Shown piece after piece: positions 44,934 through 61,952 of a stretch of DNA of 64,000 nucleotides (positions within the stretch are counted from its first letter, which is position 1; each line of letters begins with the position of its first letter). The notes beneath the pieces were generated by a model. It made no database searches and was not told where the DNA came from. It was given only the letters and a program-made list of their open reading frames with translations. Origin of the DNA: Bdellovibrionales bacterium (lineage in GTDB: Bacteria > Bdellovibrionota > Bdellovibrionia > Bdellovibrionales > UBA1609). The stretch lies in contig JAWLHR010000001.1 of the NCBI GenBank assembly GCA_041690295.1, positions 274,168-338,167 of the forward strand, read 5' to 3'. Position numbers and translations under genes: made by a program.

Positions 44934-45028
44934 GGACCTATAAGATAACGATTGGGGCAAATGAGGCAAGATCACGGCCCTTGATTTTCGATCATTTTCT
45001 TGCTTGCCTTTACATAGGGAGCGGGGCC

Positions 45029-45811
45029 ATGAAAAGAATTCTATCTCACATCTTCAATCCCTCCCCTTCGCGCGTTGAAATTCCGCCGGAATTCTTTAGC
45101 GAAAAACGACGGCGGATCATCGACAAATACGATATCCCGCCGACAAAACTCGAAAAAGTTTTCTCCGATAAGGAATTGGAGGAAATAAAAAAGCTGGCCC
45201 TCGAAAACTCAACGCAAACCATTCGCCCCGGCTCAAAAAACTTCTGTGTGGATTGGAGTCATTTAAAGCCGATTGTACTGCCGAAATTTAAACCCTGGAT
45301 GCCGAAGACTGGACGGGTCAATGAACAGCTGAACGTGACAACGAATGCGTTTCGGCCACATACGGATATGGCGGTCGATCCAGGTCAGCCGAACGTCATT
45401 CAATTCATAGTGCCGGTGGACGCTTGGGGAAAAGACCGGCAAGCTTCGATCGTCTTTTTCAAGCAACGGTTTTTAGGCTCCCGCTTATCGCCTCTTTTTC
45501 AAAGACCCGAAGGCTCGGTTGAACGATGGCTTGAGAGTCGGAACCGTTATATCGAGGGCTATGAACCAAATCATAAAATTGACGAGTCCCTGCTGAAAGG
45601 TCCACTGGCGCATGTTGAGCCATTACTCTTATCCGGCCTTTCCGTTTCCGAAATCCTGACTTATGAGCCGGGTGACCTTATTGTGTTCGGCACCTCTCGT
45701 GTCCATTGCTCCGGCGATATGATGTTTCATGGGCTCTTTGCTAAGTTGTTCTTGCTACCCAGGATCCAGATCGGTCTGGATGAGCCTCAGTCACGCCCAG
45801 GTTCAGAGTAA
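45029..45811 (+). CDS. Putative 2OG-Fe(II) oxygenase-like (DSBH) protein
   Basis: HTD...PGDLIVF....VHCS: HxD...H facial triad. Confidence 0.55.
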   Translation: MKRILSHIFNPSPSRVEIPPEFFSEKRRRIIDKYDIPPTKLEKVFSDKELEEIKKLALENSTQTIRPGSKNFCVDWSHLKPIVLPKFKPWMPKTGRVNEQLNVTTNAFRPHTDMAVDPGQPNVIQFIVPVDAWGKDRQASIVFFKQRFLGSRLSPLFQRPEGSVERWLESRNRYIEGYEPNHKIDESLLKGPLAHVEPLLLSGLSVSEILTYEPGDLIVFGTSRVHCSGDMMFHGLFAKLFLLPRIQIGLDEPQSRPGSE

Positions 45812-45940: not shown

Positions 45941-47098
45941 ATGCCATTATTGTTCCTTTTCCTTTTGTTTCCCTTTGTGACGGCCAATGCCACTTCGGGT
46001 GTGATTACCGGTATCTCAGTTAACCCAGAGTTATTGCCAAAGGTGAAATGGAGCGGGGATCTCCGCTATAGCCTTTTGAGCTCGAAAGAAAAAGCTGAGG
46101 ATGCGCGATACTATCAGCAGCTTCGATTGCGAGTGGGATTCGATGCGGATGTAAATGAATCTCTGAAAACCAAAGTACGATTGGCCACGGGAACATCGGC
46201 GACTTCGACCAATCAAACTTTAGGAGACCCAAGTGACCCGGGAATGCCACGTCGAAGTTTCGGTATTGATCGCGCTTATATGGATTGGACCGCGAATAAG
46301 ACCACATCGGTTTGGCTCGGTCGCACAGCCAATCCATTTTGGCGCCCGGAAAATGTTCAAATTCTATATGACAACGATTTGGCGTTTGAAGGTTCGGTCC
46401 TGCGCTGGCGGAACAAATGGTCGGATTCGGAAGCTTTTTCCAATTTGGGTGGATTCATAATTTCCGAGAACTACGCCGAGGGAGAGGATTTGGTTGATAT
46501 CGCCTTAATTGGCATGGACCTCGGTTGGCTCAAAAAAGGTACGGATTGGCGATGGACATCGCGCATCGGACATCATCACTACCTCAACGTCAAGGACCGG
46601 ACCATCTCCCGCCTCGCTCGAGGGGCCAAGATCGATTCAACCTCTCCATCGGTTCCCCGCTATAAAGGCAACACGGTTTACGCCGAAGATCCTTCTTTGC
46701 CGGCGGCAGATCGGGTCTATCGATTCAAAAATGATTACGCTCTTTTTCAAGCGGGTACGGAGTTCGCCTATAATTTCGGATCGGTGGAAGGCCTATTCTT
46801 TTTTGAAGGCATTCGGAACACGGCGATCAGCCGGATGCGAGACGCCTTCCAAACCGGCCTTAAAATCGAATGGAAATGGTTCTCATGGACGGAAGCCTAT
46901 CTTCGCAAAGAGCCGGACTCCGTATTGGGCCAATTCAGTTATTTTGGATCGGATCAAGAAGGGTTTCGCCATGTCATGACTTTTCGCCTGGATAAAAACG
47001 TAAAGCTATGGTTGACCCGTTTCGATCTTGATCGACATTATGCCGAATCCAAGAGCAAATACGAGATCACATTCTTAGAACTTGTGGCCGCTTTTTAG
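45941..47098 (+). CDS. Putative outer-membrane porin
   Basis: Signal peptide, WSGDLRY, RLRVG, RLATG..TSTNQTLG, IDRAY, C-terminal Phe. Confidence 0.8.
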   Translation: MPLLFLFLLFPFVTANATSGVITGISVNPELLPKVKWSGDLRYSLLSSKEKAEDARYYQQLRLRVGFDADVNESLKTKVRLATGTSATSTNQTLGDPSDPGMPRRSFGIDRAYMDWTANKTTSVWLGRTANPFWRPENVQILYDNDLAFEGSVLRWRNKWSDSEAFSNLGGFIISENYAEGEDLVDIALIGMDLGWLKKGTDWRWTSRIGHHHYLNVKDRTISRLARGAKIDSTSPSVPRYKGNTVYAEDPSLPAADRVYRFKNDYALFQAGTEFAYNFGSVEGLFFFEGIRNTAISRMRDAFQTGLKIEWKWFSWTEAYLRKEPDSVLGQFSYFGSDQEGFRHVMTFRLDKNVKLWLTRFDLDRHYAESKSKYEITFLELVAAF

Positions 47099-47107
47099 AA
47101 TGAGGGT

Positions 47108-47878
47108 CTACGCTTTCGTGATGACCGGAGCGTTCATGAGGAGCTTGTCCTCGGGGTGGTCCAAAAACGGCTCTCGCCAAACCTCTCCCTGAGGCAGATA
47201 TCTCCGGATCGATTTTTGGTAAGCGTGTTCATCAAAGTGAACCACCGTCGCGCCTGATAACTTTGACTTCGCTGAAAAATAGAGGTTCCAACTCTGGGTG
47301 AACTCCGGAAGATATCGGTGATCGTAAGGCTTAAAGGGCAGGACCTCAGGCCGAAATTCATTTAGTTTCAATGACAGAAGGCCGAGTTGCAGGAAGTACA
47401 TCCGATTCATTGATGCATTTTCATAAGATCGAGGTTCAAACAGATAAGTTTGGAAACCGTTCTTTTCCAGAAACTCGACCATTTCATCGAAACCTGTCGG
47501 GCGGATCCGAATACTGACGATGTACTTCTCACCGGGTCTTTGTTTCTTCAGTTCAGACTCCAGGAAAGAGACGGATTCATGATTCCGGCGTAGGTCACGC
47601 CACTTGCCCACCTGGAAATTGTGTAACATTCTACAAGAACCGTTCACTGAGCCGTATGAGGTGAGCAGATGAGCCGCGGAATGCGCACCGGTGAAATCGA
47701 GTCCCACACAAGCGATCCGGTCATTATTAAGCATACGAGGGAGATTGGCAAAAAACTGGCCTTCTCCTGATCTGGATTTGGAGACGAGCGTGAACGAACC
47801 CAGTTTGGATCCGATGAAGCACCCCGAACCAAACAGCAGCAACTGTCTTAAAAAGAGACGTCGGTCGCTCTTATTCAT
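47108..47878 (-). CDS. Hypothetical protein with twin-arginine-like signal
   Basis: SDRRLFL plus hydrophobic stretch; VGLDFTGAHSAAHLL is weakly sulfotransferase-like. Confidence 0.55.
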   Translation of the reverse strand: MNKSDRRLFLRQLLLFGSGCFIGSKLGSFTLVSKSRSGEGQFFANLPRMLNNDRIACVGLDFTGAHSAAHLLTSYGSVNGSCRMLHNFQVGKWRDLRRNHESVSFLESELKKQRPGEKYIVSIRIRPTGFDEMVEFLEKNGFQTYLFEPRSYENASMNRMYFLQLGLLSLKLNEFRPEVLPFKPYDHRYLPEFTQSWNLYFSAKSKLSGATVVHFDEHAYQKSIRRYLPQGEVWREPFLDHPEDKLLMNAPVITKA

Positions 47879-48076
47879 TGGTAAGTAAAATTGTATAACG
47901 CGCCATTCCCGCGATTCAAGACAGTGGATCAACTCTGGACACTGGCCTGGAATTAACTTGCCTTGAACTGACGTCAGGCCTCTCGGCCGTGCCTCATTCG
48001 AGTTGAAGGCCGAATGCCAAGTGGCTATATTCCCTACATGAATAAGATCGACAATAGGCTTGATCGGAGGGGTTCA

Positions 48077-49036
48077 ATGTATCTTTTGACGGTTATCCTT
48101 TCTCTTTTCATGGTCCAGGCTCAGGCCCACGATTTAACCACAATCGTTTACGCGGCCCCCACCACGATCACCGCGGGCATCCCCTATGTTGCGCAAGCCA
48201 ATGGGTATTTCAAAGAGCAGAATATCAAAATCGAAGAGAAGCTTTTCGCTTCAGGGCGCGAATCGCTTGAGGCTCTGCTCGCGGGACACGCCCAACTTCA
48301 GTCGGTTTCCGAGACACCGTTCATTCACGCGGTATTGCAGGGTAACAAAATCGTTACAATCGCGACTGTGGCCGTGCACGGCGAAGCGAAGCTCATCGCG
48401 CGGAAAGATCGCGGAATAATAAAAGAGACCGACTTAAAAGGAAAAAAGGTGGGGACCGCTCCCGGCACGAATTCGGATTATTTCATGCACGTCTTCTTGA
48501 GTGGCCACGGGTTGAAGCCGAATGACATCGCCATATTCAACATGAAGGCGCCGCAAATGAAAACCGCGCTCGTGAAAGGCGACATCGATGCCTATTTCGC
48601 CTGGGAGCCTCACATCTATTACGCTAAAAAGGAGCTGGGCGACAAAGCGATTGTGTTTAATCCGGGCCAACGATATAGCGGCCGGCAGACGATCAACATG
48701 AATGCGGACTTCGCGGAAAAGAATCCGGATGTAGTCCGGAGCATCGTTAGAGCCCTTTTGCGGGCGGAAGAATTCATCAAGAAGAATCCCGAGAAAGCAC
48801 GGGAAATCGTCGCGGCCAAATTGGGAGTTAAAATCGAGGACATCGATCCCATGTGGAAAGAAATCGATTTCAAAGTCCAGTTAGATAACGGCATTCTTCC
48901 GCTCTTTGAAAAGATCGGTAAGTGGTCCGCCGAGATGAATAAACGAGCGGCGCCGATTCCCGATTTTAAAAAACACATTTATGCGAAGGCGCTGCTAAGG
49001 GAAAAAGAAAATGTGGTGGCACCCGAACTTCGTTAA
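48077..49036 (+). CDS. ABC substrate-binding protein, NMT1/SsuA/TauA family
   Basis: Signal peptide, DLKGKKVG..PGT, GDIDA...WEP. Confidence 0.9.
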   Translation: MYLLTVILSLFMVQAQAHDLTTIVYAAPTTITAGIPYVAQANGYFKEQNIKIEEKLFASGRESLEALLAGHAQLQSVSETPFIHAVLQGNKIVTIATVAVHGEAKLIARKDRGIIKETDLKGKKVGTAPGTNSDYFMHVFLSGHGLKPNDIAIFNMKAPQMKTALVKGDIDAYFAWEPHIYYAKKELGDKAIVFNPGQRYSGRQTINMNADFAEKNPDVVRSIVRALLRAEEFIKKNPEKAREIVAAKLGVKIEDIDPMWKEIDFKVQLDNGILPLFEKIGKWSAEMNKRAAPIPDFKKHIYAKALLREKENVVAPELR

Positions 49037-49781
49037 GGTGCGCGACCACGCGATCACAGTCCTGTTCCTCATGGGTGTATTCGGCGCTTGGGAATGGTTA
49101 TACAGATCCAACCTCTATCCGCCTCACCTCTTCCCCGGCCCGAGCGCGGTGTGGCCGGCCTTGGTGGAAATGGCCAAGTCCGGTGAACTGGCCCAAGATT
49201 TTTTGGCTTCCTCATTCAGATGGATAACGGGATTTATTATCGGGACGGTTCTGGGTGTACCGTTTGGCATGATTTGCGGACGCTTGAAATTCATTCGGAT
49301 GTCAATCGGCGGATTGCTCAACGGTTTAAGTTCCATTCCAAAAATCGTTATGATTCCGATCGCGATACTATGGTTTGGGCTGGGAGAAACGCAGAAGGTC
49401 TCGCTGGTGGCCTGGGGCGCCTTTTTTCCCGTCTGGCTCAGCTCCATGGAAGCGGCCCTGCACACGCCCCGGGAACTTGTTTGGGTGGCGCGATCTTATA
49501 ATCTGACGCCATTGCAGTCGGCGCTCCACATTTTTTGGCCGAGCGCCATTCCTCATATCGTGGCCGGCATACGCATCGCCATCTCGACGGCCACCTTTTC
49601 TCTCGCGGCGGCCGAGATGTCGGGCGCGTTCTCCGGATTGGCCTATCGAGTTTTTTATAGTCACGAAATGTTTCAGACCGATAAGATGATGGCCGGAATA
49701 TTTGTCATTACGGTGCTGTCTTGGTTGGTGAACTATGCGTTTATGAAGCTGGTCAAGTACTTGGCCCCTTGGGCGACTTAA
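49011..49781 (+). CDS. ABC permease, SsuC/TauC family
   Basis: FPGPSAV, IPIAILWFGLGE, AFFPV, AAEM; start uncertain. Confidence 0.9.
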   Translation: MWWHPNFVKVRDHAITVLFLMGVFGAWEWLYRSNLYPPHLFPGPSAVWPALVEMAKSGELAQDFLASSFRWITGFIIGTVLGVPFGMICGRLKFIRMSIGGLLNGLSSIPKIVMIPIAILWFGLGETQKVSLVAWGAFFPVWLSSMEAALHTPRELVWVARSYNLTPLQSALHIFWPSAIPHIVAGIRIAISTATFSLAAAEMSGAFSGLAYRVFYSHEMFQTDKMMAGIFVITVLSWLVNYAFMKLVKYLAPWAT

Positions 49782-49791
49782 CCGGCAGGAG

Positions 49792-50589
49792 ATGGAAGTG
49801 CGGTCGGGTTACGAAATACAAGATCTCTGCTTTGGATACACCGACAGGCGGCGCCTATTCGACAATTTCAACTTCCGTGTGCGCAATGGCGAGTTCGTCA
49901 CCATTACGGGACACTCGGGTTGCGGAAAAAGCACCTTCCTCTATTTGCTCGCTGGTTTATTGAAAGCCAACAGCGGCTCGATTCGGTTTAATCAAAAGGT
50001 CAATCCCCCACCGGGTCCGGACCGTTTTACGGTCTTCCAATCAGACAATCTGTTCTTCTGGAAAACCGCCTTGGGAAACGTCGCTCTGGGACCAAGGCTC
50101 GTACATCGCCTGACAAAAAAAGAATCGCGGCGCGAAAGTCTAGCGCTGCTTGAACGCGTGGGTTTGAAAGGGTTCGAGAAATACTACCCGCACCAACTGA
50201 GCGGCGGCATGCGACAAAGGGTCGGCTTGGCGAGAGCCTTTGCCGTGCGCCCTGATGCCATTCTCATGGATGAGCCCTTCGGGTCATTAGACGCGCAAAC
50301 TCGCGTAGAAATGCAAAATCTGCTGATCGAAATTTGGGGTGAGTATTCAGGAACCATCGTCTTCATCACGCATGATATCGACGAGGCCATAACGTTATCC
50401 GATCGAATTGTGGTGTTCGGCGGTGAACCCGTTCACATCAAAACGGAGATCCGGATACCGGAAGAAAGACTTTTACGGCGTTCGAAAACTTTCTTGCCAA
50501 GGCGAGAGGCGATTCGGGACGAAATCATGAACATGTTGGGCGCGGAACAGGGGGCCAGAATAAATCATGAAGATCTTCGCTTATCGTGA
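49792..50589 (+). CDS. ABC ATPase, SsuB/TauB family
   Basis: GHSGCGKST, YPHQLSGGMRQR, LMDEPFGSLD, ITHDIDEA. Confidence 0.93.
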   Translation: MEVRSGYEIQDLCFGYTDRRRLFDNFNFRVRNGEFVTITGHSGCGKSTFLYLLAGLLKANSGSIRFNQKVNPPPGPDRFTVFQSDNLFFWKTALGNVALGPRLVHRLTKKESRRESLALLERVGLKGFEKYYPHQLSGGMRQRVGLARAFAVRPDAILMDEPFGSLDAQTRVEMQNLLIEIWGEYSGTIVFITHDIDEAITLSDRIVVFGGEPVHIKTEIRIPEERLLRRSKTFLPRREAIRDEIMNMLGAEQGARINHEDLRLS

Positions 50590-52327
50590 CCTATCGTCTT
50601 CGCATATTGACTTCGAAAAGTTGAATCCGGGATATCGGCCCGTGAAAGTGAGCCAAGACTGCTGGTTTGTTTGCAGCCAGGATTTATATGACGATCATGA
50701 ACACACTATCGCCTTCCTCGGCGATCTTTTCAATTTGGAAGACCTGAAGCGGAAATACGGACACGAGTCGACGGCTTCTGAGTTCGAATATTTAGTGAAA
50801 GCCATTAAAGATGGAACCTTTCGTAATGAAGAACATGAAGGGTCGTTTTGCCTGATCGTTTATGAGAAAGCCTCCGGCCGCTTTTCGGTTCATACGGATC
50901 CATTCGGTGATCTGTACCCCTATTACTCGGTGACGGATAAATTCGTTTTGATCTCCACACACATGACGGATTTTTCCGATCCAAGGTATTTCGAACTGAA
51001 TCCCGACTGGATTCGAAGATACTTCCAAGGCAATGACACTGTTGATTTAATGACCGTCATCAAGGGCGTGAGCCGGCTTCGCAGCGGGCGTTATCTTCAA
51101 ATTCAAGGGCAACAGGCGGTTGAACATCAATATTTCGATCTTCTCGAGAAGATCCGGACTCAGATGGCGAAACCGCGCCTGGAGATTTCCATTGATGAAG
51201 CCGTCGACGAATTCTCCAGAATTACGATCGCGAACCTGCGATCGGTTTTTAAGAAATACAAGAAACCGATTTTGTTCCTTTCCCAAGGCATAGACAGCGT
51301 CAGTTTGCTCGCCCTTATGGCCCAAGCCGGGCTGCCGCTCCTGTCGATGACAAGAATTCCGGACAATGACTTCACGGATGAATGCCTTTCGATGCACAGA
51401 AGGATTCTTGAAAAAGTTCCCCACGAAAATCATCACCATAAGATTATCGGCGATCGAGTCTTCTTGGAATTGCAGAAGAGCTATTACACTCAGCCGGACA
51501 ACAACACATGGCAAACTCTCGGCATCAATCATGGTAAGTCCGTGGTGCCGTCTCTTGAGTTGGGCGCGGACTGCGTGATTTCGGCCAGCATGGGTGATTT
51601 CTTGTTCATCCACCGGACGCGGTATTTGTTCACGCATTGGCTGGCCCAAACCGGAAGAGGAAAAGGCGACGACTCGAAACTCGAAAACCTAAAGAACGAT
51701 TTTTTCGCAAGCCTCCCCGGTTTCGAGAACGATTACGCCTACAACCCGCATGAAATCAACGAGCGGCTCTTGCGCCTCTTTCGCGCGGCGGACCATGATT
51801 TCTGGCGGTTTTTCGCCGAGAATCTGCACATTTGGAGAGGCGTTTCCCACGACAGGGATAACCGGCTGGCCGGCAAGATCAGCGTTGTCGATCCTTTTAA
51901 AGACACAAGACTCTTCGATTTCTTCTATTTGTTACCGGAGGACCACCACCTCTTGTCGATGAAGCAATCGATCTTTCAGGAAAAAATGATCACCCGGACC
52001 TTTAATGAAAAGGTCTATTTACAAAAAAAGGCGAATCCATTCGCCTTAGGATTGGTCGCTTACAAATATCAAGATGCAATCGAAGGCGATTTGCAAAATG
52101 CGCTTGACTTGCTCAATCAGCTTCAGGTGGAATCATACGACTACTATCAAAACCAATTGTCGGAACAGAAGCGCAGAGGTTCCATGGATCTAGTCCTCTG
52201 CCGGATGCTGACTTTTTATTATTGGCATCAGAATTGGCTTGCGGCACGGCGAACCCGGCGCACGTTCTGGCGTGGCGTTTTAAGGCCGGTCATTCAAGCG
52301 TTCACGCCCACTCACCCGAGGAGTTAG
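50567..52327 (+). CDS. Asparagine synthetase-like protein (degenerate Ntn domain plus PP-loop domain)
   Basis: GDLFNLEDLK, EGSF, TDPFG..P.YY, LFLSQGIDS, MGDFLF, DPFKD.RL; no N-terminal Cys. Confidence 0.75.
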   Translation: MKIFAYRDLSSSHIDFEKLNPGYRPVKVSQDCWFVCSQDLYDDHEHTIAFLGDLFNLEDLKRKYGHESTASEFEYLVKAIKDGTFRNEEHEGSFCLIVYEKASGRFSVHTDPFGDLYPYYSVTDKFVLISTHMTDFSDPRYFELNPDWIRRYFQGNDTVDLMTVIKGVSRLRSGRYLQIQGQQAVEHQYFDLLEKIRTQMAKPRLEISIDEAVDEFSRITIANLRSVFKKYKKPILFLSQGIDSVSLLALMAQAGLPLLSMTRIPDNDFTDECLSMHRRILEKVPHENHHHKIIGDRVFLELQKSYYTQPDNNTWQTLGINHGKSVVPSLELGADCVISASMGDFLFIHRTRYLFTHWLAQTGRGKGDDSKLENLKNDFFASLPGFENDYAYNPHEINERLLRLFRAADHDFWRFFAENLHIWRGVSHDRDNRLAGKISVVDPFKDTRLFDFFYLLPEDHHLLSMKQSIFQEKMITRTFNEKVYLQKKANPFALGLVAYKYQDAIEGDLQNALDLLNQLQVESYDYYQNQLSEQKRRGSMDLVLCRMLTFYYWHQNWLAARRTRRTFWRGVLRPVIQAFTPTHPRS

Positions 52328-53407
52328 ATGGCGAAAAACACAGGCCGCACGTTTTGGCTTTACGACGGACGCCAGTTTTTTAATAAGAATTCGGCCCTCG
52401 AAAGCGCCGGCGACATATCCCGCGTGAGTTTTCATCATCATGATGAGGCCTTTTCCAAAGCCAATTGGCTGGTTGAACCCGAGAAGAGTTGGCCGGATCT
52501 TTTATGCGAGCGCGCCTGCCAATTGCGGGACTCGTATGACCATCTTCGGCTTTGGTACAGTGGTGGTGTCGATAGCCATACGGTTTTAATGACTTTTATC
52601 GAGAACAAGATTCCACTGGATGAAATTTGTATCATGCGCACCAGTCCCACCGCGGACTATGAAGACCCCGGCAACAGCGAGATCAATTTCGTCGCCTTGC
52701 CTTTTCTGCGCCGGATTCAGCCCCTGCTGGGCAAAGCGAAAATCAATCTCCTCGATCTAGGGCCGCGACATTACCAAAAATTTTTCTCCGATCCAGATTG
52801 GGCTAAACAGGTCAACACGATCGACTTCCGGCTTTCTTACGTCAGTACCGCGAGCCTTCTCCTACCTGAGTTAATCTCACCGATTGAACGAGGCCGTAAA
52901 CTGGCCAACGTCACCGGAGGAAACAAGCCCCGGTTGGAAATGGAGAATGGACGATATTACGCCTTCTACTGGGACGAATATCTCAAATGGGACTTGAACG
53001 AAGCGACCCGTGAAAGTTTGGAGGAGTTTTACTTTTCGTCCGAACTGCCGGAAGTTCATATCAAACAGTGCCACATGGTCAAAAATCACCTCAAAGCGAA
53101 ACACCCGGAAATGACTGACCTTAAGGAGTTCTTCAGAAACGACCATCCTGTTTACGTGAACGAACTCAACAGCATTGTCCGGCTCCCCGCCCCTGGCGGC
53201 GTTTCATTAGGCAAATCCTCGACACTTCTCACCCCCAAAGCGGCCTATCAACTGCAGCAAGCGCGCGAAGGAAATGAAGAGGTGTTCCTTCTTTACCAAC
53301 GTCGGCTTGAGGAACTGGAGTCCTTTGATCAATGGAGGTTTAACAATGGACATATCTCGTCTGGATTCATCGGCATCAAATCCCAGCGCTACGATCTCGG
53401 AGCGTAG
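52328..53407 (+). CDS. PP-loop (adenine nucleotide alpha-hydrolase-like) protein of unknown function
   Basis: RACQLRDSYDHLRLWYSGGVDSHTVL, VTGGNKP, HIKQCHMVK. Confidence 0.65.
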   Translation: MAKNTGRTFWLYDGRQFFNKNSALESAGDISRVSFHHHDEAFSKANWLVEPEKSWPDLLCERACQLRDSYDHLRLWYSGGVDSHTVLMTFIENKIPLDEICIMRTSPTADYEDPGNSEINFVALPFLRRIQPLLGKAKINLLDLGPRHYQKFFSDPDWAKQVNTIDFRLSYVSTASLLLPELISPIERGRKLANVTGGNKPRLEMENGRYYAFYWDEYLKWDLNEATRESLEEFYFSSELPEVHIKQCHMVKNHLKAKHPEMTDLKEFFRNDHPVYVNELNSIVRLPAPGGVSLGKSSTLLTPKAAYQLQQAREGNEEVFLLYQRRLEELESFDQWRFNNGHISSGFIGIKSQRYDLGA

Positions 53408-53411
53408 TGAC

Positions 53412-55001
53412 GTGAGGCTCTGGAGCAAGTATGCCCCCATTCTGATGATTGCGGCTGTTATATTATTGTTCACTCTGATTCAACCTGTACACGCGGATTT
53501 GAAGCCACAAGGTGAACTCCGCATCGCCGTCGAATCGCTTGGTAACGAAACTCTCGATCCGGTGATGGGACCGGCGACCAACACCAAGATTTACCTTCCA
53601 CTCATTTACGATTCACTCGTGGGCGCGGATAAGGCCAATTCCGGAATCTCAAAGGAAACTGGCGTGGCCAAAGACTGGAAAATTTCGAAAGACGGCAAGA
53701 CTTACACATTTTACCTCCGCCAAGGCATCAAGTTTCACAACGGAGATGAACTGACCGCCGAAGACGTCAAATTCTCGTTTGAGCGCGCGATCGGGCCCAA
53801 AGCGGTCTCTTCGCTTTCGGGTGTGTTGGCCAAAATTATCGATAAAATCACGGTTGTCGATCCTTACACGGTCACCATCACGCTGAAAGAGCCGAGTTTT
53901 TCCTTTTTGCTGGATATCTCGATCCTGGTGGGTTCGGAATCCATGATTGTTCCGAAAAAGTATATCGAAAAAGTGGGTGAGGAAAAATTCGCCCTCGAAC
54001 CGATCGGCAGCGGCCCTTATCGATTCAAAGCGCGCCATGCCGGCTCGTCGATCGAGTTCGAAGCCATGCCCCACCACTGGTTGGTTGGCGTCCCCCGGTT
54101 TGCGAATGTCAGCGTCATGGGGGTTTCCGAGCAAGGGACAAGGCTGACCATGTTACGAAGCGGCCATGCGGATGTGATCACCATCGGCCGGCGATATGTG
54201 GACGAGTTAAAGAAACAGGGATTTTTGATCGCGACCAAGCCCGCCAGTCACAACATGCACATGCTCTTCAACAATCAATGGGAAAAGGACAATCCATTAA
54301 ATAACAAAAAAGTCCGTCAGGCGATCGCACTGGCCATTGATAGCCAGACCATACTTAAAACTATTATGCTCAACGGCGGTCAGTTGACCCGCTGTTGGAT
54401 CGCGGATGTAGCGTACGATTCGCGCCCTTCCGGCCTCTGCGATCCCCAGAAATACGATCCCAAAGCGGCGAAGAAACTTCTTCAAGAAGCGGGTTATCCG
54501 GATGGCATCGACATCACCTTCAAGTCGTTTGCCAAGACGGGTGTGCCTGAAAAATTTGAGATCGACCAGGCCATCGCCGGCTATTTACGTGCCGTTGGAA
54601 TCCGCGCCAAGATTGAGGTCGGCGAATACGGCGCTTATCGGACCCAATGGCCGAAACCCGAAAGCCATCCGAAGACCATCGCGACCAATCCGACTTCATC
54701 GCAGGTGGTGATTGGCTCGCTGCTGCAAGTTTTCTGGGGATCGGACGGCCTCCTCTCCACCACGCGAAACGTAAGTCCGAAAGCGGATAAGGCGATCAAG
54801 CACATGCTCGCCTCGCCCGATCTCAAGGCCTACAAAAAGCGCCTGATGGACGCGTGGAAGATTTTGATCGAGGACGCTCACACCGTTATGCTGTTCAGCA
54901 TAGATGCGAAGTACGCGGCCAATAAGAAAAAGATTTCTAAAGAATGGCCCATGGGTACAAGTACGGCTGATCCCAACTTGCGCGCTCTCGTGAGCCGGTA
55001 A
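53412..55001 (+). CDS. ABC substrate-binding protein, family 5 (peptide/nickel)
   Basis: YTFYLRQGIKFHNGDELTAEDVKFS, PIGSGPY, KVRQAIALAID, YDPKAAKKLL. Confidence 0.92.
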   Translation: MRLWSKYAPILMIAAVILLFTLIQPVHADLKPQGELRIAVESLGNETLDPVMGPATNTKIYLPLIYDSLVGADKANSGISKETGVAKDWKISKDGKTYTFYLRQGIKFHNGDELTAEDVKFSFERAIGPKAVSSLSGVLAKIIDKITVVDPYTVTITLKEPSFSFLLDISILVGSESMIVPKKYIEKVGEEKFALEPIGSGPYRFKARHAGSSIEFEAMPHHWLVGVPRFANVSVMGVSEQGTRLTMLRSGHADVITIGRRYVDELKKQGFLIATKPASHNMHMLFNNQWEKDNPLNNKKVRQAIALAIDSQTILKTIMLNGGQLTRCWIADVAYDSRPSGLCDPQKYDPKAAKKLLQEAGYPDGIDITFKSFAKTGVPEKFEIDQAIAGYLRAVGIRAKIEVGEYGAYRTQWPKPESHPKTIATNPTSSQVVIGSLLQVFWGSDGLLSTTRNVSPKADKAIKHMLASPDLKAYKKRLMDAWKILIEDAHTVMLFSIDAKYAANKKKISKEWPMGTSTADPNLRALVSR

Positions 55002-55016
55002 GATAATTTTGGTGTC

Positions 55017-55940
55017 ATGCTGAAGTTTCTGATTCGTCGTACAATGCAATCCCTTGTCACGGTCTTCTTGCTCTTTACGATCGTTTTTTTGATGACGCGG
55101 GCAACGGGAGATCCCGTGGGCCTTCTCGTGCCGCCTGAGGTTGGTGCTGAAACGGTGGCACATGTCCGCCAGAACCTTGGCCTAAATGAGCCCTATTATG
55201 TGCAATACGCTCTCTTTCTAAAAAGTATTCTCACCGCGGACCTGGGCACGTCCTTTCTGGCCCGTCGGCCGGTGATGGATCTGATTCTCGAGCGTTTGCC
55301 CGTCTCGATGATTTTGGCCGTTGCCAGTATGTTGCTTGGAGTTCTTTTGGCTTTTCCTCTGGGAATTCTCTCCGCACTTAAACGCGGCCGCAAGATTGAC
55401 AGTTGCATTCAAATTTTCGGTGCGTTCGGAATCGCGACCCCGCAATTTTGGATCGGCCTTATTCTGATCCAGATTTTTGCCGGCCACTTGGGCCTGCTCC
55501 CCGTGGGCGGCGCCGAATCCTGGCGGCATTTTATTTTGCCCACTTGCACATTGGGATTGCTTCAGGCTTGCAGTATGTTGCGAATACTTCGCTCGAACAT
55601 GATTGAAGCGCTCGGCACTGATTTTGTCGCACTCGCGCGGGCGAAGGGTCTTTCGGAAGCTCGTGTGGTGGGCGTTCACGCCCTTGGCAATGCCGTGCTC
55701 CCGGTTCTCACGTTCGGCGGACTTCTGCTCGCTTCTCTTATGACCGGGACAATCGTGGTGGAGTCCGTTTTCGCGCTTCCAGGCCTTGGCCGCCTGGCCT
55801 ATGACGCCGCTCTTTTTCGGGACTATCCGCTCGTTCAAGGCGTGGTGATCGTCGCCGGCGTCATCATCATTGCCATCAATTTGCTTATTGATGTTTCTTA
55901 CGCCTTCATTGATCCCCGTATTCAGTTGGATAATTCGTGA
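55017..55940 (+). CDS. ABC permease DppB/OppB-like
   Basis: DLGTSF, ARAKGLSE, VESVFALPGLG, RDYPLVQG, IDPRI. Confidence 0.92.
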   Translation: MLKFLIRRTMQSLVTVFLLFTIVFLMTRATGDPVGLLVPPEVGAETVAHVRQNLGLNEPYYVQYALFLKSILTADLGTSFLARRPVMDLILERLPVSMILAVASMLLGVLLAFPLGILSALKRGRKIDSCIQIFGAFGIATPQFWIGLILIQIFAGHLGLLPVGGAESWRHFILPTCTLGLLQACSMLRILRSNMIEALGTDFVALARAKGLSEARVVGVHALGNAVLPVLTFGGLLLASLMTGTIVVESVFALPGLGRLAYDAALFRDYPLVQGVVIVAGVIIIAINLLIDVSYAFIDPRIQLDNS

Positions 55941-56782
55941 TTCGATCTCGGCTGCCCTGGGTCTCCATTTTTATACTTTTCGTTTTCCTGATGATGGCGA
56001 TTTTGGGCGACCTCATCGCACCCCAAGACATGTACGCGCAAAATCTCATGAAACGCCTTGAACCGCCCGTATGGATGGAAGGCGGCAGTTGGGCGCACAT
56101 TTTCGGCACCGATGCTTTGGGAAGGGACATTTTGAGCCGGTTGATCGGGGGAGTGCGAACCTCACTGGCGATTGGAATCATCGGGCTTTTAATCGGGGGT
56201 GGAATCGGTGGTGCGGTCGGCATCATCGCCGGCTATTCGGGCCGGTACGTGGACACCATCATCATGCGATTGGCGGATGCTTCACTCTCCTGTCCCATGA
56301 TCTTGTTCGCTCTCCTTCTATCGGTCTCTTTGGGCAGCGGCATCACCTCCGCCTTAACCGCGATTTGTATGGTGATTTGGGCGCCGTTCGCGCGCGTAGT
56401 CCGCTCCGAAGTGCTGGTCATTCGTGAAATGGATTACGTCAAGGTGGCGCAGATCTCGGGTGCCTCATCCATACGAGTTTTGTTCCGTCATATCTTGCCC
56501 AATGTGGCCAACACCTTGATCGCCTTTGCCGGTTTACAAATCGGCTTTATCATTATCCTTGAGGCGACGCTCAGTTTTCTTGGAGTCGGGATTTCTCCCC
56601 CAACTCCGGCTTGGGGCTCGATGACCGCCGAAGGAAGAGAATACCTTGCGACCCATTGGTGGGTTTCGGTGATACCTGGAACCGCGATTACGATAACGGT
56701 CGTCGCGTTCACTTTGTTTGGTGATTGGCTGCGTGACCGGCTCGACCCTCGCCTTGGCCGAAAAGATTGGCATCCGAGCTAG
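55937..56782 (+). CDS. ABC permease DppC/OppC-like
   Basis: FGTDALGRDILSRL, RHILPN, LSFLGVG, GDWLRDRLDPR. Confidence 0.92.
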   Translation: MIRSRLPWVSIFILFVFLMMAILGDLIAPQDMYAQNLMKRLEPPVWMEGGSWAHIFGTDALGRDILSRLIGGVRTSLAIGIIGLLIGGGIGGAVGIIAGYSGRYVDTIIMRLADASLSCPMILFALLLSVSLGSGITSALTAICMVIWAPFARVVRSEVLVIREMDYVKVAQISGASSIRVLFRHILPNVANTLIAFAGLQIGFIIILEATLSFLGVGISPPTPAWGSMTAEGREYLATHWWVSVIPGTAITITVVAFTLFGDWLRDRLDPRLGRKDWHPS

Positions 56783-56805
56783 CCGTCATCTAGAATTATC
56801 GGAAT

Positions 56806-58392
56806 ATGAGGCAACTGCGAAAGAATTCGGATCTCCTGATTTTGAACATGCCCGTTCTCTTTCCAGTTTGCCCGCCGCTCGGACCCGCCATCATCAAGGG
56901 TCAGCTCTCGAAACATGGATACAGCTGTGAAGTCTGGGACTTGAACATCGAGCTTTTTCAGATCGAAAAATTCCGATCCCTGTTCACAACCGAATACGAA
57001 TTGCTTGTTTTCAAACCTCCGCAGTCGTCTTCGCGCTTTATCGACTATTACGAAAAACAAGGGTTACGCGAGGTCTTTCAAGCCTGGGCGGACAACGTGA
57101 TCAAGGCCAATCCCAAAACTCTGGGCCTGAGCCTTTATTCGTTTCATTCCGGTCATTTCGGTGAACGGTTGATTTTTGAAGTCAGGGACCGCGGCTATCG
57201 CGGCCGTATCGTACTCGGCGGCCCGTTCGCCCACGACCTCCACCGAAAGCCCCATTTAAGGGAATTTTACCCGCAAGACGTGGACGTCATCGCGGGAGAA
57301 GGTGAACTGGCCATTCTTAGTTATCTAAAGGGGGATCTCAACTACCCGGGCATTAACTCCGCTCCCGTCCCCTTGAACGACCTGAATGCGATGCCGATTC
57401 CCGAATATGAGGACGGCCAATTTGAACCGTTCGACCGAATCGAAGAAGAAGAGGGGCTCAACAAGGTCTATATTACGGCTTCACGCGGGTGTGTGAGGCG
57501 GTGCACGTTTTGCGATATTAAAAACATGTGGCCCAAGTATCGATATCGAAGCGCGGAACATATCTTTCGCGAAATCGTTTATCTTCACGAAAAGTTCAAT
57601 CGCACCGAGTTCAAGTTCACGGACAGTCTCATAAACGGCAACCTGAAGATGTTGTCCGAGCTCAGTGAGCTCATCGTTGACTACAAGGCACGAAAGCAAA
57701 AAAAACGTTGGATATTTTTCGGCAAAAAAAGTGATCCCCCGCGAATTCATTGGGGCGGCCATTTTATCTGTCGCACACGCGCTTCCACCCCACCGGAATT
57801 CTTTTCGTTGATCGCGAGAGCGGGCTGCTGTTATGTCAGCATCGGCGTGGAATCCGGTAGTGAACGCGTTCGCAAACATATGGGAAAGCCCTTTTCCAAC
57901 GAAGACCTGTTTTACACTCTTGAACAATTCAACCGGGTCGGCATCAGCGTCACGTTCCTGATGGTGATTGGCTATCTCACCGAAACCGAAGAGGACTTCC
58001 AGCAAACACTTCAGCTTTTTAAAGATTGTAAGGATCGGGGGCTTTTGGCCTCGCCGGAGAAATGGGCTTGCGTCCAAGGCATCGAACTCGGCCCGACTCT
58101 GACTCTGCCCCCTGACACAGAGGTTCGACACCTCGTTGAAAAAGAGATAGGGGAGACGCCCTCCAATTCACATTGGACCTACAACGGCTTGGATCGCTTT
58201 ACCCGCTTGGAACGGTTATTCAGAGCCATGGTATTTATTGAGGAAATGGGCTATTCACATCTCCTCAAAGGCCAACTGGGCTCGCGCTACGGACATCTCT
58301 GGAATGAATTTATCAACTTTGAAAACTTCCAAAGAGTGGACCGGGATGTGATTGAAGTTCTCGCCAATGCCGGCTATTTCAAAAACGCCTGA
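56806..58392 (+). CDS. Cobalamin-dependent radical SAM enzyme
   Basis: B12-binding N-domain (PPLGPAI, IVLGGP, GEGE), SRGCVRRCTFC, GVESGS. Confidence 0.9.
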   Translation: MRQLRKNSDLLILNMPVLFPVCPPLGPAIIKGQLSKHGYSCEVWDLNIELFQIEKFRSLFTTEYELLVFKPPQSSSRFIDYYEKQGLREVFQAWADNVIKANPKTLGLSLYSFHSGHFGERLIFEVRDRGYRGRIVLGGPFAHDLHRKPHLREFYPQDVDVIAGEGELAILSYLKGDLNYPGINSAPVPLNDLNAMPIPEYEDGQFEPFDRIEEEEGLNKVYITASRGCVRRCTFCDIKNMWPKYRYRSAEHIFREIVYLHEKFNRTEFKFTDSLINGNLKMLSELSELIVDYKARKQKKRWIFFGKKSDPPRIHWGGHFICRTRASTPPEFFSLIARAGCCYVSIGVESGSERVRKHMGKPFSNEDLFYTLEQFNRVGISVTFLMVIGYLTETEEDFQQTLQLFKDCKDRGLLASPEKWACVQGIELGPTLTLPPDTEVRHLVEKEIGETPSNSHWTYNGLDRFTRLERLFRAMVFIEEMGYSHLLKGQLGSRYGHLWNEFINFENFQRVDRDVIEVLANAGYFKNA

Positions 58393-59147
58393 TCGCGTGC
58401 CGGTTCCGGCAGCGTTCGCCGAAGCTTGTCCAACCAGGTGTGCGGATCATCTTGGACGTGTTCAAATTTTTCTTTCAGAAAATGGAAGTCATGGAGAAGT
58501 GATCGGGCCTTCTGCTCCTGATCGTCAAAAAAGAATTGGGCGGCCATGGTGGCGCCTAAGAGACAAAAAACTCCATTTGTTTTTTCCAGCCCCTTATTCA
58601 TCCATGTGATCGCGCGAGACAACGCCTGCTGGTCGCCCTCGCCGGTGAACGCCTGGGATAAGAGCTTGTATGTCTCACGGAACCCGCTTCGCCACGCGTG
58701 AAAGGGCGATTTATGAAAATGACAACTGCTCGCGATCTTCTCGATCACGACGTAATGGGAGCCGGCGACTTCAGCGGTAAAGTCGAGCGCCATGGATTTC
58801 TTGTGTTCCAATACCCTGGCTTTCGGCCATAACTTCACGGCTCCGTTCCCGTAAACGAGGTCGTTGACTTCGTTTCGGCAGCGCCACACGTATACGGAAT
58901 TTTCTTCCGGCGGAAAACTTTGCCCCCAACTGAATGTGAAATCCTGTTCAATTATGTTGTCCGCATCGACCGAGAAAAAAAACTCCGCCCCACTAAGTTC
59001 AGCGGCTTGGGACCAAGCTTGGGCGATAATGGGGATCCCGTGAATCCGTCTGGCGCGGGGAAACCGCTCGGAAAGCAGCCGCCAATGTTCATCCGCATAA
59101 GGCTCGTCCAGTGAGAAAAAGAAAATGTCAAAACGGTCGGGATCCAT
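58374..59147 (-). CDS. GT-A-fold glycosyltransferase-like protein
   Basis: DIFFFSLDEP.A, VDADN (DxD), VW...N.VN.L.YGNGAVKLWP, AWRSGFRE..KL. Confidence 0.6.
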   Translation of the reverse strand: MDPDRFDIFFFSLDEPYADEHWRLLSERFPRARRIHGIPIIAQAWSQAAELSGAEFFFSVDADNIIEQDFTFSWGQSFPPEENSVYVWRCRNEVNDLVYGNGAVKLWPKARVLEHKKSMALDFTAEVAGSHYVVIEKIASSCHFHKSPFHAWRSGFRETYKLLSQAFTGEGDQQALSRAITWMNKGLEKTNGVFCLLGATMAAQFFFDDQEQKARSLLHDFHFLKEKFEHVQDDPHTWLDKLRRTLPEPARDQAFLK

Positions 59148-59168
59148 CTGATTTCTTTCGCACACGGA

Positions 59169-59936
59169 TCATGAACCGAAAATATTGAACGCCACGTGCC
59201 AAGCATCATTGGCATTCACTAAGAACTTCACTTTCTCCTTGAGCATGTAGGCGTGGATGTAATCGTTAAACGCCTTGTATTCACCCTCTTTTCGGCTCGG
59301 CCCCCCGAGCATCATGACGATGATGTCAGAAGGTCTTACATAAGGGTGCCAAGCCGTGAGTAAAAACAAAGCCGAGCTATACAGATCGGAGTTGATGTAA
59401 ATCACTTTTCTTCGTGCATTCGGATCATAGGACGCCAAAAAATCCGGTAGCGTGTTTTGAAAGTAGCCGGCGATTAATTTCACTCCCCTGCGGCTCTTTT
59501 GCTTCGCCAGATACGCTCTGTCCTCATCGGTTAACAGGTAATCTTCACGCCCCCTATGCACTCGACCATCCACCTGCCAGGCCTCGGGGTACCCTTTGAA
59601 TGAATCGAAGCCGTAAAGTCTGGCGTCGCGTTCATTCAGTAAGTCGGCCACCAAAGACAAAGACTCGCCACGATAGACACCGAACTCAAAATAATCCAAT
59701 GGATCGCCGGTCAACGAGAAGACGCTTTCAAAAAAGCGTTTTTTTAAATCGCGTTTGGCGGTGGCCGAATTCAGTTCGCCGTCGACGCGAATGCAGCCGG
59801 ATTTCCGTAATTCGGTTTGGAGTTCGGCCTGGCTTGACCAATGCAGTTGAACGTTCGGTAAAATCCGTCGGTAGGTCTTTTTTCGTCCGGGAATTCTAGG
59901 ATCCCACCCAATACGAAAATCGTTTTTAGTTTCCAT
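59169..59936 (-). CDS. TylF/MycF-like methyltransferase (divergent)
   Basis: EFGVYRGES, YGFDSFKGYPE, GYFQNTLP, INSDLYSS, GEYKAF. Confidence 0.8.
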   Translation of the reverse strand: METKNDFRIGWDPRIPGRKKTYRRILPNVQLHWSSQAELQTELRKSGCIRVDGELNSATAKRDLKKRFFESVFSLTGDPLDYFEFGVYRGESLSLVADLLNERDARLYGFDSFKGYPEAWQVDGRVHRGREDYLLTDEDRAYLAKQKSRRGVKLIAGYFQNTLPDFLASYDPNARRKVIYINSDLYSSALFLLTAWHPYVRPSDIIVMMLGGPSRKEGEYKAFNDYIHAYMLKEKVKFLVNANDAWHVAFNIFGS

Positions 59937-59960
59937 GGCCTCCGCCCGCCCGGATCTTGA

Positions 59961-61952
59961 CTAATGGCGCACGAGAAAATCATGCGTCTGCAGAATCCCC
60001 AACTCTTCCGGCCTAAGCATTCGAGCTATACCATGACCTCGACGTCTATAATAGTAGCTGGTGTTCCGGATAAACGCTTCAAATGGCATTTTATGAGTGT
60101 CGGGTAAAGCGCATTGGAAATAAAATTCGGATTTCTTGGGCTCGAGCATCACCCCTGTGTTGATCGTCTTTTGCCAATCATGGTCAAATTCACCGAACAC
60201 CGGGTATTCGCGGCCATGCTTAATCCAAAGCTTGTCATTTAACTCAAAAAGTTCTTCGTCATTGATATTGAACCGGCTTCGGCAAAATTCCCTTAAAAAT
60301 CGCTCGAATTCGCTCCGTTGCACTTGAGCGGCGATGGCGACAAATCTTTCGTATCGTGTGTAACGAGCGCCGAGGAACTCAAAATACTTCTTCGTGGTCT
60401 CCCGGCTGACATAAATATTAATCCAACCTGAACGCACGCTGTTCATCATTTCCTCGTCGAGCGCCTTGAGAATGCCATTCAGAAAAAAGGAATCATCCCT
60501 CCGGACTGCTTCCATAAAAGAGGAATAGAAGTCCCTAACCGGGATCTGATATTTATAATAAAGGCCCATGGCCAAACCATAAGTTCCGCCCAAAAGGTGA
60601 AGTCCCGTGGCGATATGGCTTTCCACCCAAGCTTCGCGCCACTTGTCGTTTGGAAGCGTATTGGTGGCGATGACATACTCTGAAGTTTCAATCAGTTCCG
60701 GATCCGGAATCAGGCTGAAATTGTCATGCATGCTGCCCGGTAGGGTTTTAAATCCATACCGTTCGCGTGATTCAGGACTCGCCAATTCGGTATTTGGTAT
60801 CAGAACTAAAATATTCACGTCGATCGACGTGTATCGCGCACGCTCCAGACTATCGTAAATACCGGTTAAGAAGGACTCCTTGGTCTCGTGTGGTAAACCC
60901 AAGATCAACTGATTGTAATAGGCGAACTGATTCTGACTGAATTGGCTCGCGATCTCTCGAACCTGAGTCGGGTCGAGATTCTTCCGCTTCACCGCCTTGA
61001 GAGTTTCGGGATTCTCCGATTGGGTGGCAAGCGTAATGCCCTCGAGAAGACCGACGTTATGCCGTTTACGAGCGATCGAAACGACTCTTCGAGGGCTGCT
61101 CTTCGCCCAGGTGAGCATCAGTTTATGCGGATAACCTGTCTTTTGTTTTATTTCGACGATCCGATCAGCGAGCTTTTCATCCATATCGGAAATTCCAAAG
61201 TTGGCGTCGGTGAAATAAAGATGCCGCAGTTTGGTTTTTTCGAACCAGTCTAATTCCTGATAAATTTTATGGCTGAAGGATTTGATTTTCGATTGAGTCA
61301 GCGAGCCCCAGTTGCAAAAACCGCATTGGTAAGGGCAACCTCGATTGGATTCAAAGATGGCGGTCCATTGGTCCGAGCCATTGATCATCTCGTCGAACAA
61401 ACCCATCGTGTAGGGGCTTGGCAGTTGGCTTAAATCTTTGATCCTCGGGCGCGGGCTGTTTTTCTTGATGTCGCCACCTGGTTCCCGGTAAGTGATCCCA
61501 AGGACTGAACTCAAACTTTTTTCGCGCGAACGTAAAGTTCGGAGAATCTCAAGAAAGGTCACTTCACCTTCGCCGTGCGCCGCGATATCAACTTGCGGAT
61601 GGTTTCGAAGAAATTCTACCCCCTCATCGGGAACATCCGGCCCGCCGAAAATGATGGTGCACTTTGGGTATCTCGCTTTGATCAATTCGGCTAATTTGAG
61701 ATTCCATCGCGTGTTCCAACAGTAAGACGAAAATCCGACAACCGTCGGATTTACGACTTTTTCAATCGCCTCATTCACCGGTTCGCGCAACGCAAAAAGA
61801 CCGCCCAGATCATAGGTCTCGCGAATATCATCAAACTTATGCGCGTAAGCCCACAATGTCGCGGCTGAGTAGGGCAGGTAATTCACATTCCCCGGAAAGT
61901 AGACCTTGAATAGATAAACGGACTTACGCTTTCTCGGCCACAGCCACTTCAT
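59961..61952 (-). CDS. Cobalamin-dependent radical SAM enzyme
   Basis: LPYSAATL, GFSSYCWN, IIFGGPD, HGEGE, ESNRGCPYQCGFCNWG, TDANFG, ILGLPHET. Confidence 0.92.
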   Translation of the reverse strand: MKWLWPRKRKSVYLFKVYFPGNVNYLPYSAATLWAYAHKFDDIRETYDLGGLFALREPVNEAIEKVVNPTVVGFSSYCWNTRWNLKLAELIKARYPKCTIIFGGPDVPDEGVEFLRNHPQVDIAAHGEGEVTFLEILRTLRSREKSLSSVLGITYREPGGDIKKNSPRPRIKDLSQLPSPYTMGLFDEMINGSDQWTAIFESNRGCPYQCGFCNWGSLTQSKIKSFSHKIYQELDWFEKTKLRHLYFTDANFGISDMDEKLADRIVEIKQKTGYPHKLMLTWAKSSPRRVVSIARKRHNVGLLEGITLATQSENPETLKAVKRKNLDPTQVREIASQFSQNQFAYYNQLILGLPHETKESFLTGIYDSLERARYTSIDVNILVLIPNTELASPESRERYGFKTLPGSMHDNFSLIPDPELIETSEYVIATNTLPNDKWREAWVESHIATGLHLLGGTYGLAMGLYYKYQIPVRDFYSSFMEAVRRDDSFFLNGILKALDEEMMNSVRSGWINIYVSRETTKKYFEFLGARYTRYERFVAIAAQVQRSEFERFLREFCRSRFNINDEELFELNDKLWIKHGREYPVFGEFDHDWQKTINTGVMLEPKKSEFYFQCALPDTHKMPFEAFIRNTSYYYRRRGHGIARMLRPEELGILQTHDFLVRH

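Follow-up and report, generated by a model that had tools for sequence, protein, structure and literature searches.

A 64,000-nucleotide window of a Bdellovibrionota chromosome (G000:C1:274168-338167, from a 2.88-Mb genome that is 99.9% complete) carries an island of enzyme and transporter genes at approximately 44981-61952. Its products include a stand-alone asparagine-synthetase-like protein with a pyrophosphate loop (PP-loop protein, 52328) and a minimal glycosyltransferase-like (GT) protein of the GT-A fold (58374); genes are named here by their lower coordinate in the window. Gene distribution and gene trees make it very probable that the enzyme families of the island form a pool shared by Bdellovibrionota and giant T4-like phages, with exchange between the two. 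A wider explanation, which has about an even chance of being right, is that the island takes up a precursor and turns it into a decorated surface sugar, using enzyme families that these bacteria and phages share through repeated exchange.

Predicted folds of the PP-loop and GT-A proteins

Two motifs drew attention to these proteins in an earlier note on this DNA. Both are present as written there and are conserved in their families, which sets them apart from chance resemblance. The motif W..EP..S...L..ERA.QLRD.YD.L.LWYSGG.DS occupies residues 47-83 of 52328, and S78, G80 and D82 do not vary across an alignment of 74 relatives. The second motif is distributed over three parts of 58374 (DI.F.S.DEP.A...W..L..RFP.A.R.HG at residues 7-37, VDADN at 60-64, and YG.G.VKL at 99-106). 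Among 88 aligned relatives, E15, D63, N92, N95, Y99 and G100 are invariant and D61 is nearly so. Neither protein has a Pfam, PHROG or NCBIfam match, and searches of PDB sequences with both returned nothing significant (the lowest E, 0.085, was for the DxD stretch of a galactosyltransferase).

The model of 52328 (predicted local distance difference test, pLDDT, 94) contains a strand at residues 72-76 and then a helix at 81-92 around the SGGxDS loop. The loop thus follows the first strand of a predicted HUP fold, as in AsnB-like PP-loop enzymes. The best fold match is AsnB 1ct9 (Z 11.2, root-mean-square deviation 5.2, 285 residues aligned), followed by human AsnB, beta-lactam synthetase (Z 9.1), carbapenam synthetase and TsnB9; the top five are all AsnB-like, and other PP-loop enzymes match at Z <=7.3. 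No N-terminal nucleophile glutaminase domain is present in the 359 amino acids (GATase is not matched in Pfam), and TIGR01536 gives no match. Because this domain is missing, an external amine is the likely nucleophile, by analogy with AsnB-family chemistry. 52328 probably catalyses an amide-forming adenylation. A profile comparison with the second AsnB-like protein of the island, 50567, aligned the loop region alone, with a probability of 13%.

The model of 58374 (pLDDT 92) combines a GT-A fold with a DxD motif. GT-A proteins match it at Z 10-11.5, including B4GALNT1 (Z 11.5) and viral A197 (Z 10.6), and RmlT is matched with E 1e-5.

Distribution and gene trees

The earlier note held both motifs to be typical of large phage genomes. 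Both families are indeed abundant in jumbo-phage contigs of IMG/VR, although their nearest relatives are Bdellovibrionota. For the PP-loop family, a first IMG/VR scan gave 49 viral loci and a second gave 160 viral relatives among 259 stretches; for the GT family, at least 538 of the 608 stretches scanned are viral relatives. In the ESM Atlas, the three clusters closest to 52328 consist of viral sequences only (100%). These large phage radiations contradict the alternative that the homologues are exclusively cellular, with no phage clade. The best local scores are 221 bits for cellular and 144 bits for viral relatives of the PP-loop protein, and 164 and 159 bits, respectively, for the GT. Matching to PHROGs, which the note had proposed, connected neither protein to phages. 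Across 50,697 GenBank phage records, neither 52328 nor a viral member found a match, and the sole match of the GT was Ralstonia jumbo phage RsoM2USA (36%). The distribution scans use short patterns, by which divergent members are missed.

In cells, the PP-loop gene was found at seven loci in 185,579 species genomes: six in Bdellovibrionota and one on a contig of a metagenome-assembled genome (MAG) with phage-type TctA-TctC context. The full-length gene is present in 5 of 401 Bdellovibrionota, and 10 more match the loop only. The GT has strong matches in 26 of the 401 and weak ones in 2 more; in one family (f2), 9 of 10 genomes carry it. The 51 GT loci in genomes divide into 15 from Bdellovibrionota, 21 from actinomycetes, 2 unassigned and 13 from other MAGs, 9 of which have phage tail or core genes. 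The actinomycete clade (L157-L182; Streptomyces, Micromonospora and Salinispora) is without radical S-adenosylmethionine (SAM) neighbours and lies beside a GT2-like/AAA kinase fusion. Contigs in MAGs of other bacteria that are probably misbinned jumbo-phage pieces (L148-L150, L152, L155, L156, L159, L170, L177, L404, L503 and L507) carry phage tail, terminase or cassette genes; L503 has 349,524 bp and 33% GC.

Both B12 radical SAM proteins of the island are likewise widespread in viruses. The first, 56806, has a B12-binding domain and a CxxxCxxC motif, the domain scoring under the Pfam gathering threshold. It has at least 375 viral relatives among 615 stretches; its best scores are 286 bits in Bdellovibrionota, 283 on an unassigned 349-kb contig, 273 in viruses and <=234 in other named taxa. 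GenBank phages yielded a weak match to a Streptomyces phage and nothing else. For the second, 59961, 549 of 604 stretches are viral relatives, and 17 of 301 Bdellovibrionota have it at E<=1e-40. Its score of 283 bits against the KedN5 family NF033712 is under the cut-off of 700. On a 1.2-Mb contig from Bdellovibrionota (L493, L494), tandem B12 radical SAM genes of the phage-shared clade are inserted among housekeeping genes.

The careful GT tree, rooted on actinomycetes, used 38 of 95 rows, and all 95 were placed in a quick tree. A clade supported at 98/93 unites the window protein with those of four other Bdellovibrionota and with the third of the GT copies in phage G462, and the window protein clusters with PP-loop-linked copies. 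Approximately unbiased (AU) tests reject monophyly of the viral sequences (p 4e-4) and of the Bdellovibrionota sequences (p 1e-3). In the 56806 tree, Bdellovibrionota and phage genes form one interleaved clade (99-100), which excludes the homologues from Elusimicrobiota, Omnitrophota and Myxococcota; the genes of L414 and L432 are sister to Bdellovibrionota genes at 99. Bdellovibrionota monophyly is rejected here as well (p 5e-5; quick tree with 35 of 73 rows). Both L414 and L432 are genuine phage contigs, and L493 is a genuine chromosome; L418 and L453, whose hallmark genes are not in view, were excluded from the test. The exchange that the note suspected is thereby supported by the GT and B12 radical SAM genes. 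Bdellovibrionota need not be the hosts of these phages, since RsoM2USA, the only cultured phage with the GT, infects Ralstonia.

Phage G462 carries relatives of 50567, 52328 and 56806 and the GT copy inside the window's clade. In the tree this copy falls within a group of cellular genes, and on the contig it faces a DegT gene, an arrangement shared with the Bdellovibrionota genome G233; for that copy, this favours cell-to-phage transfer. The PP-loop family is far more diverse in phages, and this diversity suggests phage-to-cell transfer of that gene. Repeated swapping between Bdellovibrionota and phages is likely, and most transfers may have run either way. The jumbo phage itself (L239-L248) has three GT copies, an AsnB-like gene, a TctA-TctC-ligase triad, a B12 radical SAM gene and a full-length LpxC (Pfam E 1e-78). 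IMG/VR labels it a provirus, and the same locus occurs on a 570-kb metagenome contig (L267).

Several points weigh against exchange. The PP-loop tree of 76 rows gives a single Bdellovibrionota clade (89/80), and a single Bdellovibrionota origin of this gene, taken alone, is compatible with the AU test (p-AU 0.295; 44 of 68 rows); with metagenomic rows added, Bdellovibrionota occupy three weakly placed positions. The trees used LG+G4 without mixture, on subsets and partly as quick trees, with groups chosen after earlier trees, and hidden paralogy could break monophyly too. The comparison for 59961 covered viruses and Bdellovibrionota.

The island and its neighbourhoods

The island is wider than the part singled out by the earlier note (52328-59147), in which three of six genes are an ordinary peptide/nickel-type ATP-binding cassette (ABC) unit. 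It runs mostly on the plus strand, from a 2-oxoglutarate (2OG)-like oxygenase and a porin, past an unknown minus-strand gene, to a NitT/TauT importer, a degenerate AsnB, the PP-loop protein, a family-5 binding protein with two permeases, and a B12 radical SAM protein. The GT, a TylF-like methyltransferase and the second B12 radical SAM protein follow on the minus strand (Table 1). The segment 48014-58392 is a tightly packed, co-directional run. As the note had listed, both B12 radical SAM genes, an AsnB-like gene and a 2OG-oxygenase-like gene are in the window. By synteny the borders are approximate, because flank genes are absent or seen once among five same-genus genomes. A tRNA-Ser(CGA) gene lies at 38691-38781, 6 kb from the island; a flanking repeat was not found in 42000-64000.

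Table 1. Genes of the island, with window coordinates and the basis of each assignment
Feature	Coordinates	Strand	Basis
2OG-Fe(II) oxygenase-like protein	44981..45811	+	phage cluster c73 profile E 7.6e-11; HTD at 127, His242
Putative outer-membrane porin	45941..47098	+	Pfam Porin_5 E 2e-23
Unknown protein, twin-arginine-like N-terminus	47108..47932	-	weak likeness to PP-loop neighbours in L259, G006
NitT/TauT-type ABC importer (binding protein, permease, ATPase)	48014..50589	+	Pfam NMT1, BPD_transp_1, ABC_tran
Degenerate AsnB-like protein	50567..52327	+	GATase_7; TIGR01536 39 bits; SQGIDS loop at 239
Putative stand-alone asparagine-synthetase-like PP-loop (SGGxDS) adenylating enzyme	52328..53407	+	359 amino acids; predicted fold, motif; family mostly viral
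Family-5 binding protein and two permeases, without own ATPase gene	53412..56782	+	Pfam SBP_bac_5, BPD_transp_1
B12-binding radical SAM protein, Bdellovibrionota-plus-jumbo-phage clade	56806..58392	+	Pfam; CVRRCTFC at 229
Minimal GT-A-fold protein with DxD (VDADN)	58374..59147	-	predicted fold
TylF-like O-methyltransferase	59169..59936	-	Pfam Methyltransf_24, TylF; phrog_6608 E 4e-15
Second B12 radical SAM protein, KedN5-like	59961..61952	-	NF033712 283 bits

It is extremely unlikely that the island is a prophage remnant or part of a misbinned jumbo-phage contig, an explanation that is largely refuted. Contig C1 has 338 kb, the size of these phages, and other MAGs do hold misbinned contigs. 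However, C1 is cellular: just upstream it holds orthologues of housekeeping genes from a 1.2-Mb Bdellovibrionota contig, and its GC of 52.7% is at the level of the other contigs of the genome, compared with 33-46% in phage loci. GC at third codon positions (GC3) of the island genes is 0.52-0.67, against 0.61 +/- 0.05 for the genome (all within 1.8 standard deviations); such host-like codon usage indicates that the island is not a fresh phage insert. The note had reported no phage structural gene in the window, and tail, terminase and gp32 profiles (among 120 built from viral loci) matched nothing in the window or elsewhere in the genome. No integrase was recognised among the window proteins scanned (26 against Pfam, 13 against PHROGs). 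Structural or packaging genes, att-like repeats and foreign composition were each looked for and were not found. Further families of the phage cassettes lie elsewhere in the genome (C16:16077-17447, C3:30112-32183, C20:9349-10356 and C14:40112-41110); the C3 gene has 42-49% identity to phage copies and 25% to Bdellovibrionota copies in the comparison set.

The remaining proteins differ in how well they can be assigned. That at 44981 has no Pfam match and is presumably an oxygenase, judging by its motif; its family is common to phage and Bdellovibrionota islands (in the latter at L498-L500). The product of 47108 has nothing in Pfam or the ESM Atlas and a weak phmmer match (E 0.01) to L259 only. 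Assignment of this protein and its similar neighbours as sulfotransferases relied on a by-eye motif, found no Pfam match and was dropped after a leave-out profile failed to recover 47108. The NitT/TauT binding protein scores 153 bits with TIGR01728, under the cut-off of 163.5, and is absent from 60 relatives at E<=1e-30; the permease-ATPase order is kept in L252, a 71% relative. The family-5 binding protein, with a likely GTG start at 53412, is absent from 60 relatives at E<=1e-40.

The AsnB-like protein 50567 begins with MKIF, without an N-terminal Cys despite its GATase_7-like region, and its TIGR01536 score is far from the curated cut-off of 267 for glutamine-dependent asparagine synthetases. 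It has two close relatives (65-67% identity); the next best match is the jumbo phage G462 (24% over 581 amino acids, full-length), and among 400 Bdellovibrionota nothing goes beyond E 5e-10. A viral scan with 50567 alone gave no match, and a two-sequence scan gave only G462, itself part of the query.

The phages that carry these families hold T4-like tail, terminase and recombination genes, and for the larger contigs CheckV estimates point to a genome size of ~340-400 kb. In them, the GT cassette lies behind tail-fibre genes, with UDP-glucose dehydrogenase and carbamoyl- and amidinotransferases. Twitch-type and related radical SAM proteins (three clusters, NF033640) stand beside the GT at 62 of the 80 viral loci and at 16 of the 22 from Bdellovibrionota. 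Tail-module or core genes occur at 40 of the 80 phage GT loci, whereas tail genes occur at none of the 22 Bdellovibrionota loci, which often sit among GT2 and sugar genes. Large islands resembling the phage cassette, with twitch radical SAM, QueC-like, 2OG oxygenase and B12 radical SAM genes, were seen in Bdellovibrionota family f2 (L495-L501, G037:C23).

The phage PP-loop gene keeps different company. TctA, TctC, DctP or porin genes lie within two open reading frames (ORFs) of it at 22 of 39 viral loci, dereplicated by dropping 10 near-duplicates (1000 shuffles: mean 10.1, maximum 16). The same holds for 38 of 67 further viral loci, which are not dereplicated, and for 19 of 80 metagenome loci, compared with 1 of 80 GT loci. 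At L257 an amino-acid ABC importer takes this place. 2OG-like oxygenases are near the PP-loop gene at 16 of the 67 viral and 40 of the 80 metagenome loci. By eye, TctC-like binding proteins beside the phage ligase have a signal peptide at the N-terminus, and the DctP-like proteins (L005, L006, L022-L024, L031, L034, L036, L046, L049) seem to be without one.

In cells the two genes meet. All five PP-loop carriers among the 401 Bdellovibrionota also hold the GT; the distance between the genes is 2.6-7.4 kb in G039, G233 and G265, they are adjacent in L400, and the linkage recurs in three Bdellovibrionota families. A DegT aminotransferase and a nucleotide-sugar epimerase are present at the loci of G039, G233 and L400, and fusions of a major facilitator superfamily (MFS) protein with spermidine synthase are found at Bdellovibrionota PP-loop/GT loci. 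The window is the case where the ligase, unrelated importers and the GT meet, and L252 keeps the importer-AsnB-ligase order. The phage modification toolkit proposed by the note is borne out in the families shared with phages and not in their arrangement, since phages keep the two modules apart.

These partners bear on whether the enzymes hypermodify DNA or RNA bases instead, which is very unlikely. Phage GTs can modify DNA, according to PMC12619734, which concerns another lineage, and the tRNA-modifying PP-loop enzymes TilS, TtuA and QueC are among the weaker fold matches of 52328. Conversely, the phage GT cassette follows tail-fibre genes, with tail or core genes at half of its loci, and the partners are periplasmic transporters and sugar enzymes. 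The models contain no nucleic-acid-binding or zinc-binding tRNA domain, and the annotated neighbour clusters include no base-modifying kinase or hydroxymethylase family.

Proposed pathway and known systems

Direct observations are the genes, predicted folds, distribution and neighbourhoods; the chemical steps are inferred. In the proposed pathway, the porin and binding-protein transporters would import a small acid or amine. 52328, perhaps also 50567, would adenylate a carboxylate with ATP and join it to an amine, and the resulting amide would sit on a nucleotide sugar, giving an N-acyl amino sugar or a uronamide. C-methylation of this compound would fall to the two cobalamin radical SAM enzymes, O-methylation to the TylF-like enzyme and hydroxylation to the 2OG enzyme, and the GT-A protein would move the product onto a surface glycan or protein. 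The most likely product is an amide-bearing, methylated surface glycan; the prospects of a surface glycan as end product are evenly balanced.

A possible but rather unlikely alternative is that the product is a small diffusible molecule (a metal chelator, a signal or an antibiotic-like amide or lactam), which would be made by the island and taken up again through its transporters and which the GT only glycosylates. The beta-lactam and carbapenam synthetases among the best fold matches of 52328 are consistent with this, as are the transporters, 2OG-like oxygenases and, once, class IV aminotransferase beside the phage ligase, and the MFS/spermidine-synthase fusions in Bdellovibrionota. KedN5-like and TylF-like enzymes are also known from natural-product pathways. 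In cells, nevertheless, the ligase has GT, DegT, epimerase and GT2 genes as neighbours, and neither an exporter, a carrier protein nor a precursor peptide was recognised in the island. Pfam and NCBIfam gave no match to a lasso-peptide precursor, leader peptidase or RiPP recognition element among island proteins (ORFs >=70 amino acids). It is doubtful, too, that the genes of the island were acquired independently and form a mosaic without a common pathway. Genes on both strands, the absence of both binding proteins from the 60 relatives at the thresholds used, the lack of the family-5 unit in L252, and the presence of other cassette members (a twitch radical SAM gene and relatives) on other contigs of the genome would suit a mosaic. 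The co-directional run, the recurrent PP-loop-GT linkage and the grouping of the window GT with PP-loop-linked copies argue for a common pathway.

Other observations weigh against the surface-sugar pathway. The nucleotidyltransferases MobA and IspD (Z ~10) lie within ~1.5 Z of the best GT match of 58374. PP-loop and GT genes are >15 kb apart in all 7 phage contigs that hold both (of 17 larger PP-loop contigs), and in a reverse search the PP-loop gene turned up in 1 of 23 GT records. DegT or epimerase genes are near the viral PP-loop gene at 4 of 39, 1 of 67 further viral and 6 of 80 metagenome loci, and the island of the window has neither. In L252 the PP-loop gene is not followed by the family-5 unit. 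TctA, TctC, DctP and porin genes are missing within two ORFs of the PP-loop gene at all 6 other cellular loci (no TTT or TRAP transporter), so that in cells only the window and L252 speak for the uptake link.

Jumbo-phage genomes carry large unannotated enzyme blocks that are out of reach for study, nearly all carriers being uncultured. Chromosomal copies in a single bacterial phylum, with PP-loop ligase, GT and sugar enzymes together, would link the two phage modules functionally. The new AsnB-like ligase family, the minimal GT-A family and the two cobalamin radical SAM clades offer compact, expressible targets. Narrow sharing between Bdellovibrionota and phages points to an unrecognised route of gene flow, through as yet unknown Bdellovibrionota-infecting jumbo phages or exchange inside prey. 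A bolder and improbable extension starts from Bdellovibrionota and giant myophages as two kinds of predator that grow within Gram-negative cells. Both would use a common mobile kit for precursor import, amide ligation, methylation and glycosylation, swapped repeatedly, possibly in co-invaded prey, to give themselves or the occupied cell a coat that protects against rival predators. In that case the island would be a cellular example in which the uptake-ligase and GT modules of the phages are joined in a single pathway.

The occurrence of the ligase in cells, its linkage there to the GT and the tree tests of exchange are newly described; by title and start of abstract, outside supplements and subscription journals, the literature gave no account of these families or of their sharing with Bdellovibrionota. 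The closest published settings are the pelagimyophage host recognition cluster (PMC7029224) and the jumbo cyanophage sugar and metabolite clusters (PMC7824862), where GTs, sugar enzymes, radical SAM proteins and oxygenases lie near tail-fibre genes and have been suggested to change the surface glycans of the host or to produce a metabolite. In the parts consulted, neither source mentions the GT family described here, the PP-loop ligase or any counterparts in Bdellovibrionota, and the present genes are chromosomal. Radical-SAM-rich genomes are on record for marine T4-like phages (PMC5332604). The NF033640 twitch-domain radical SAM cassette, the usual GT neighbour, lies outside this island, with the genome's copy on contig C16; here B12 radical SAM genes flank the GT instead. 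In the ORF348 region of RsoM2USA, tail sheath and tube genes surround the GT, along with its paralogues and a gene for a twitch radical SAM protein; no PP-loop gene was found in that phage, the ORFs are annotated as hypothetical, and those of the GT region are not among the virion proteins named in the part of PMC8504454 consulted.

58374 shares the GT-A fold and DxD motif with viral GT-A proteins (PBCV-1 capsid glycosyltransferase 2p72, STIV A197) and with RmlT, TarS and TarP. Its family differs in having 7-14% identity to them, ~230-260 amino acids and a helical C-terminal part that the fold search barely covers. 52328 shares the predicted synthetase-domain fold (Z 8-11) and the SGGxDS pyrophosphate loop with the AsnB family (AsnB, beta-lactam synthetase, CarA and TsnB9), to which the polysaccharide amidotransferases of the WbpS/WbqG type also belong as comparators. 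It differs from these enzymes in its 359 amino acids without a glutaminase domain or Cys1, in its 8-14% identity without a profile match, and in belonging to a family that is mostly phage-borne and tied to uptake systems.

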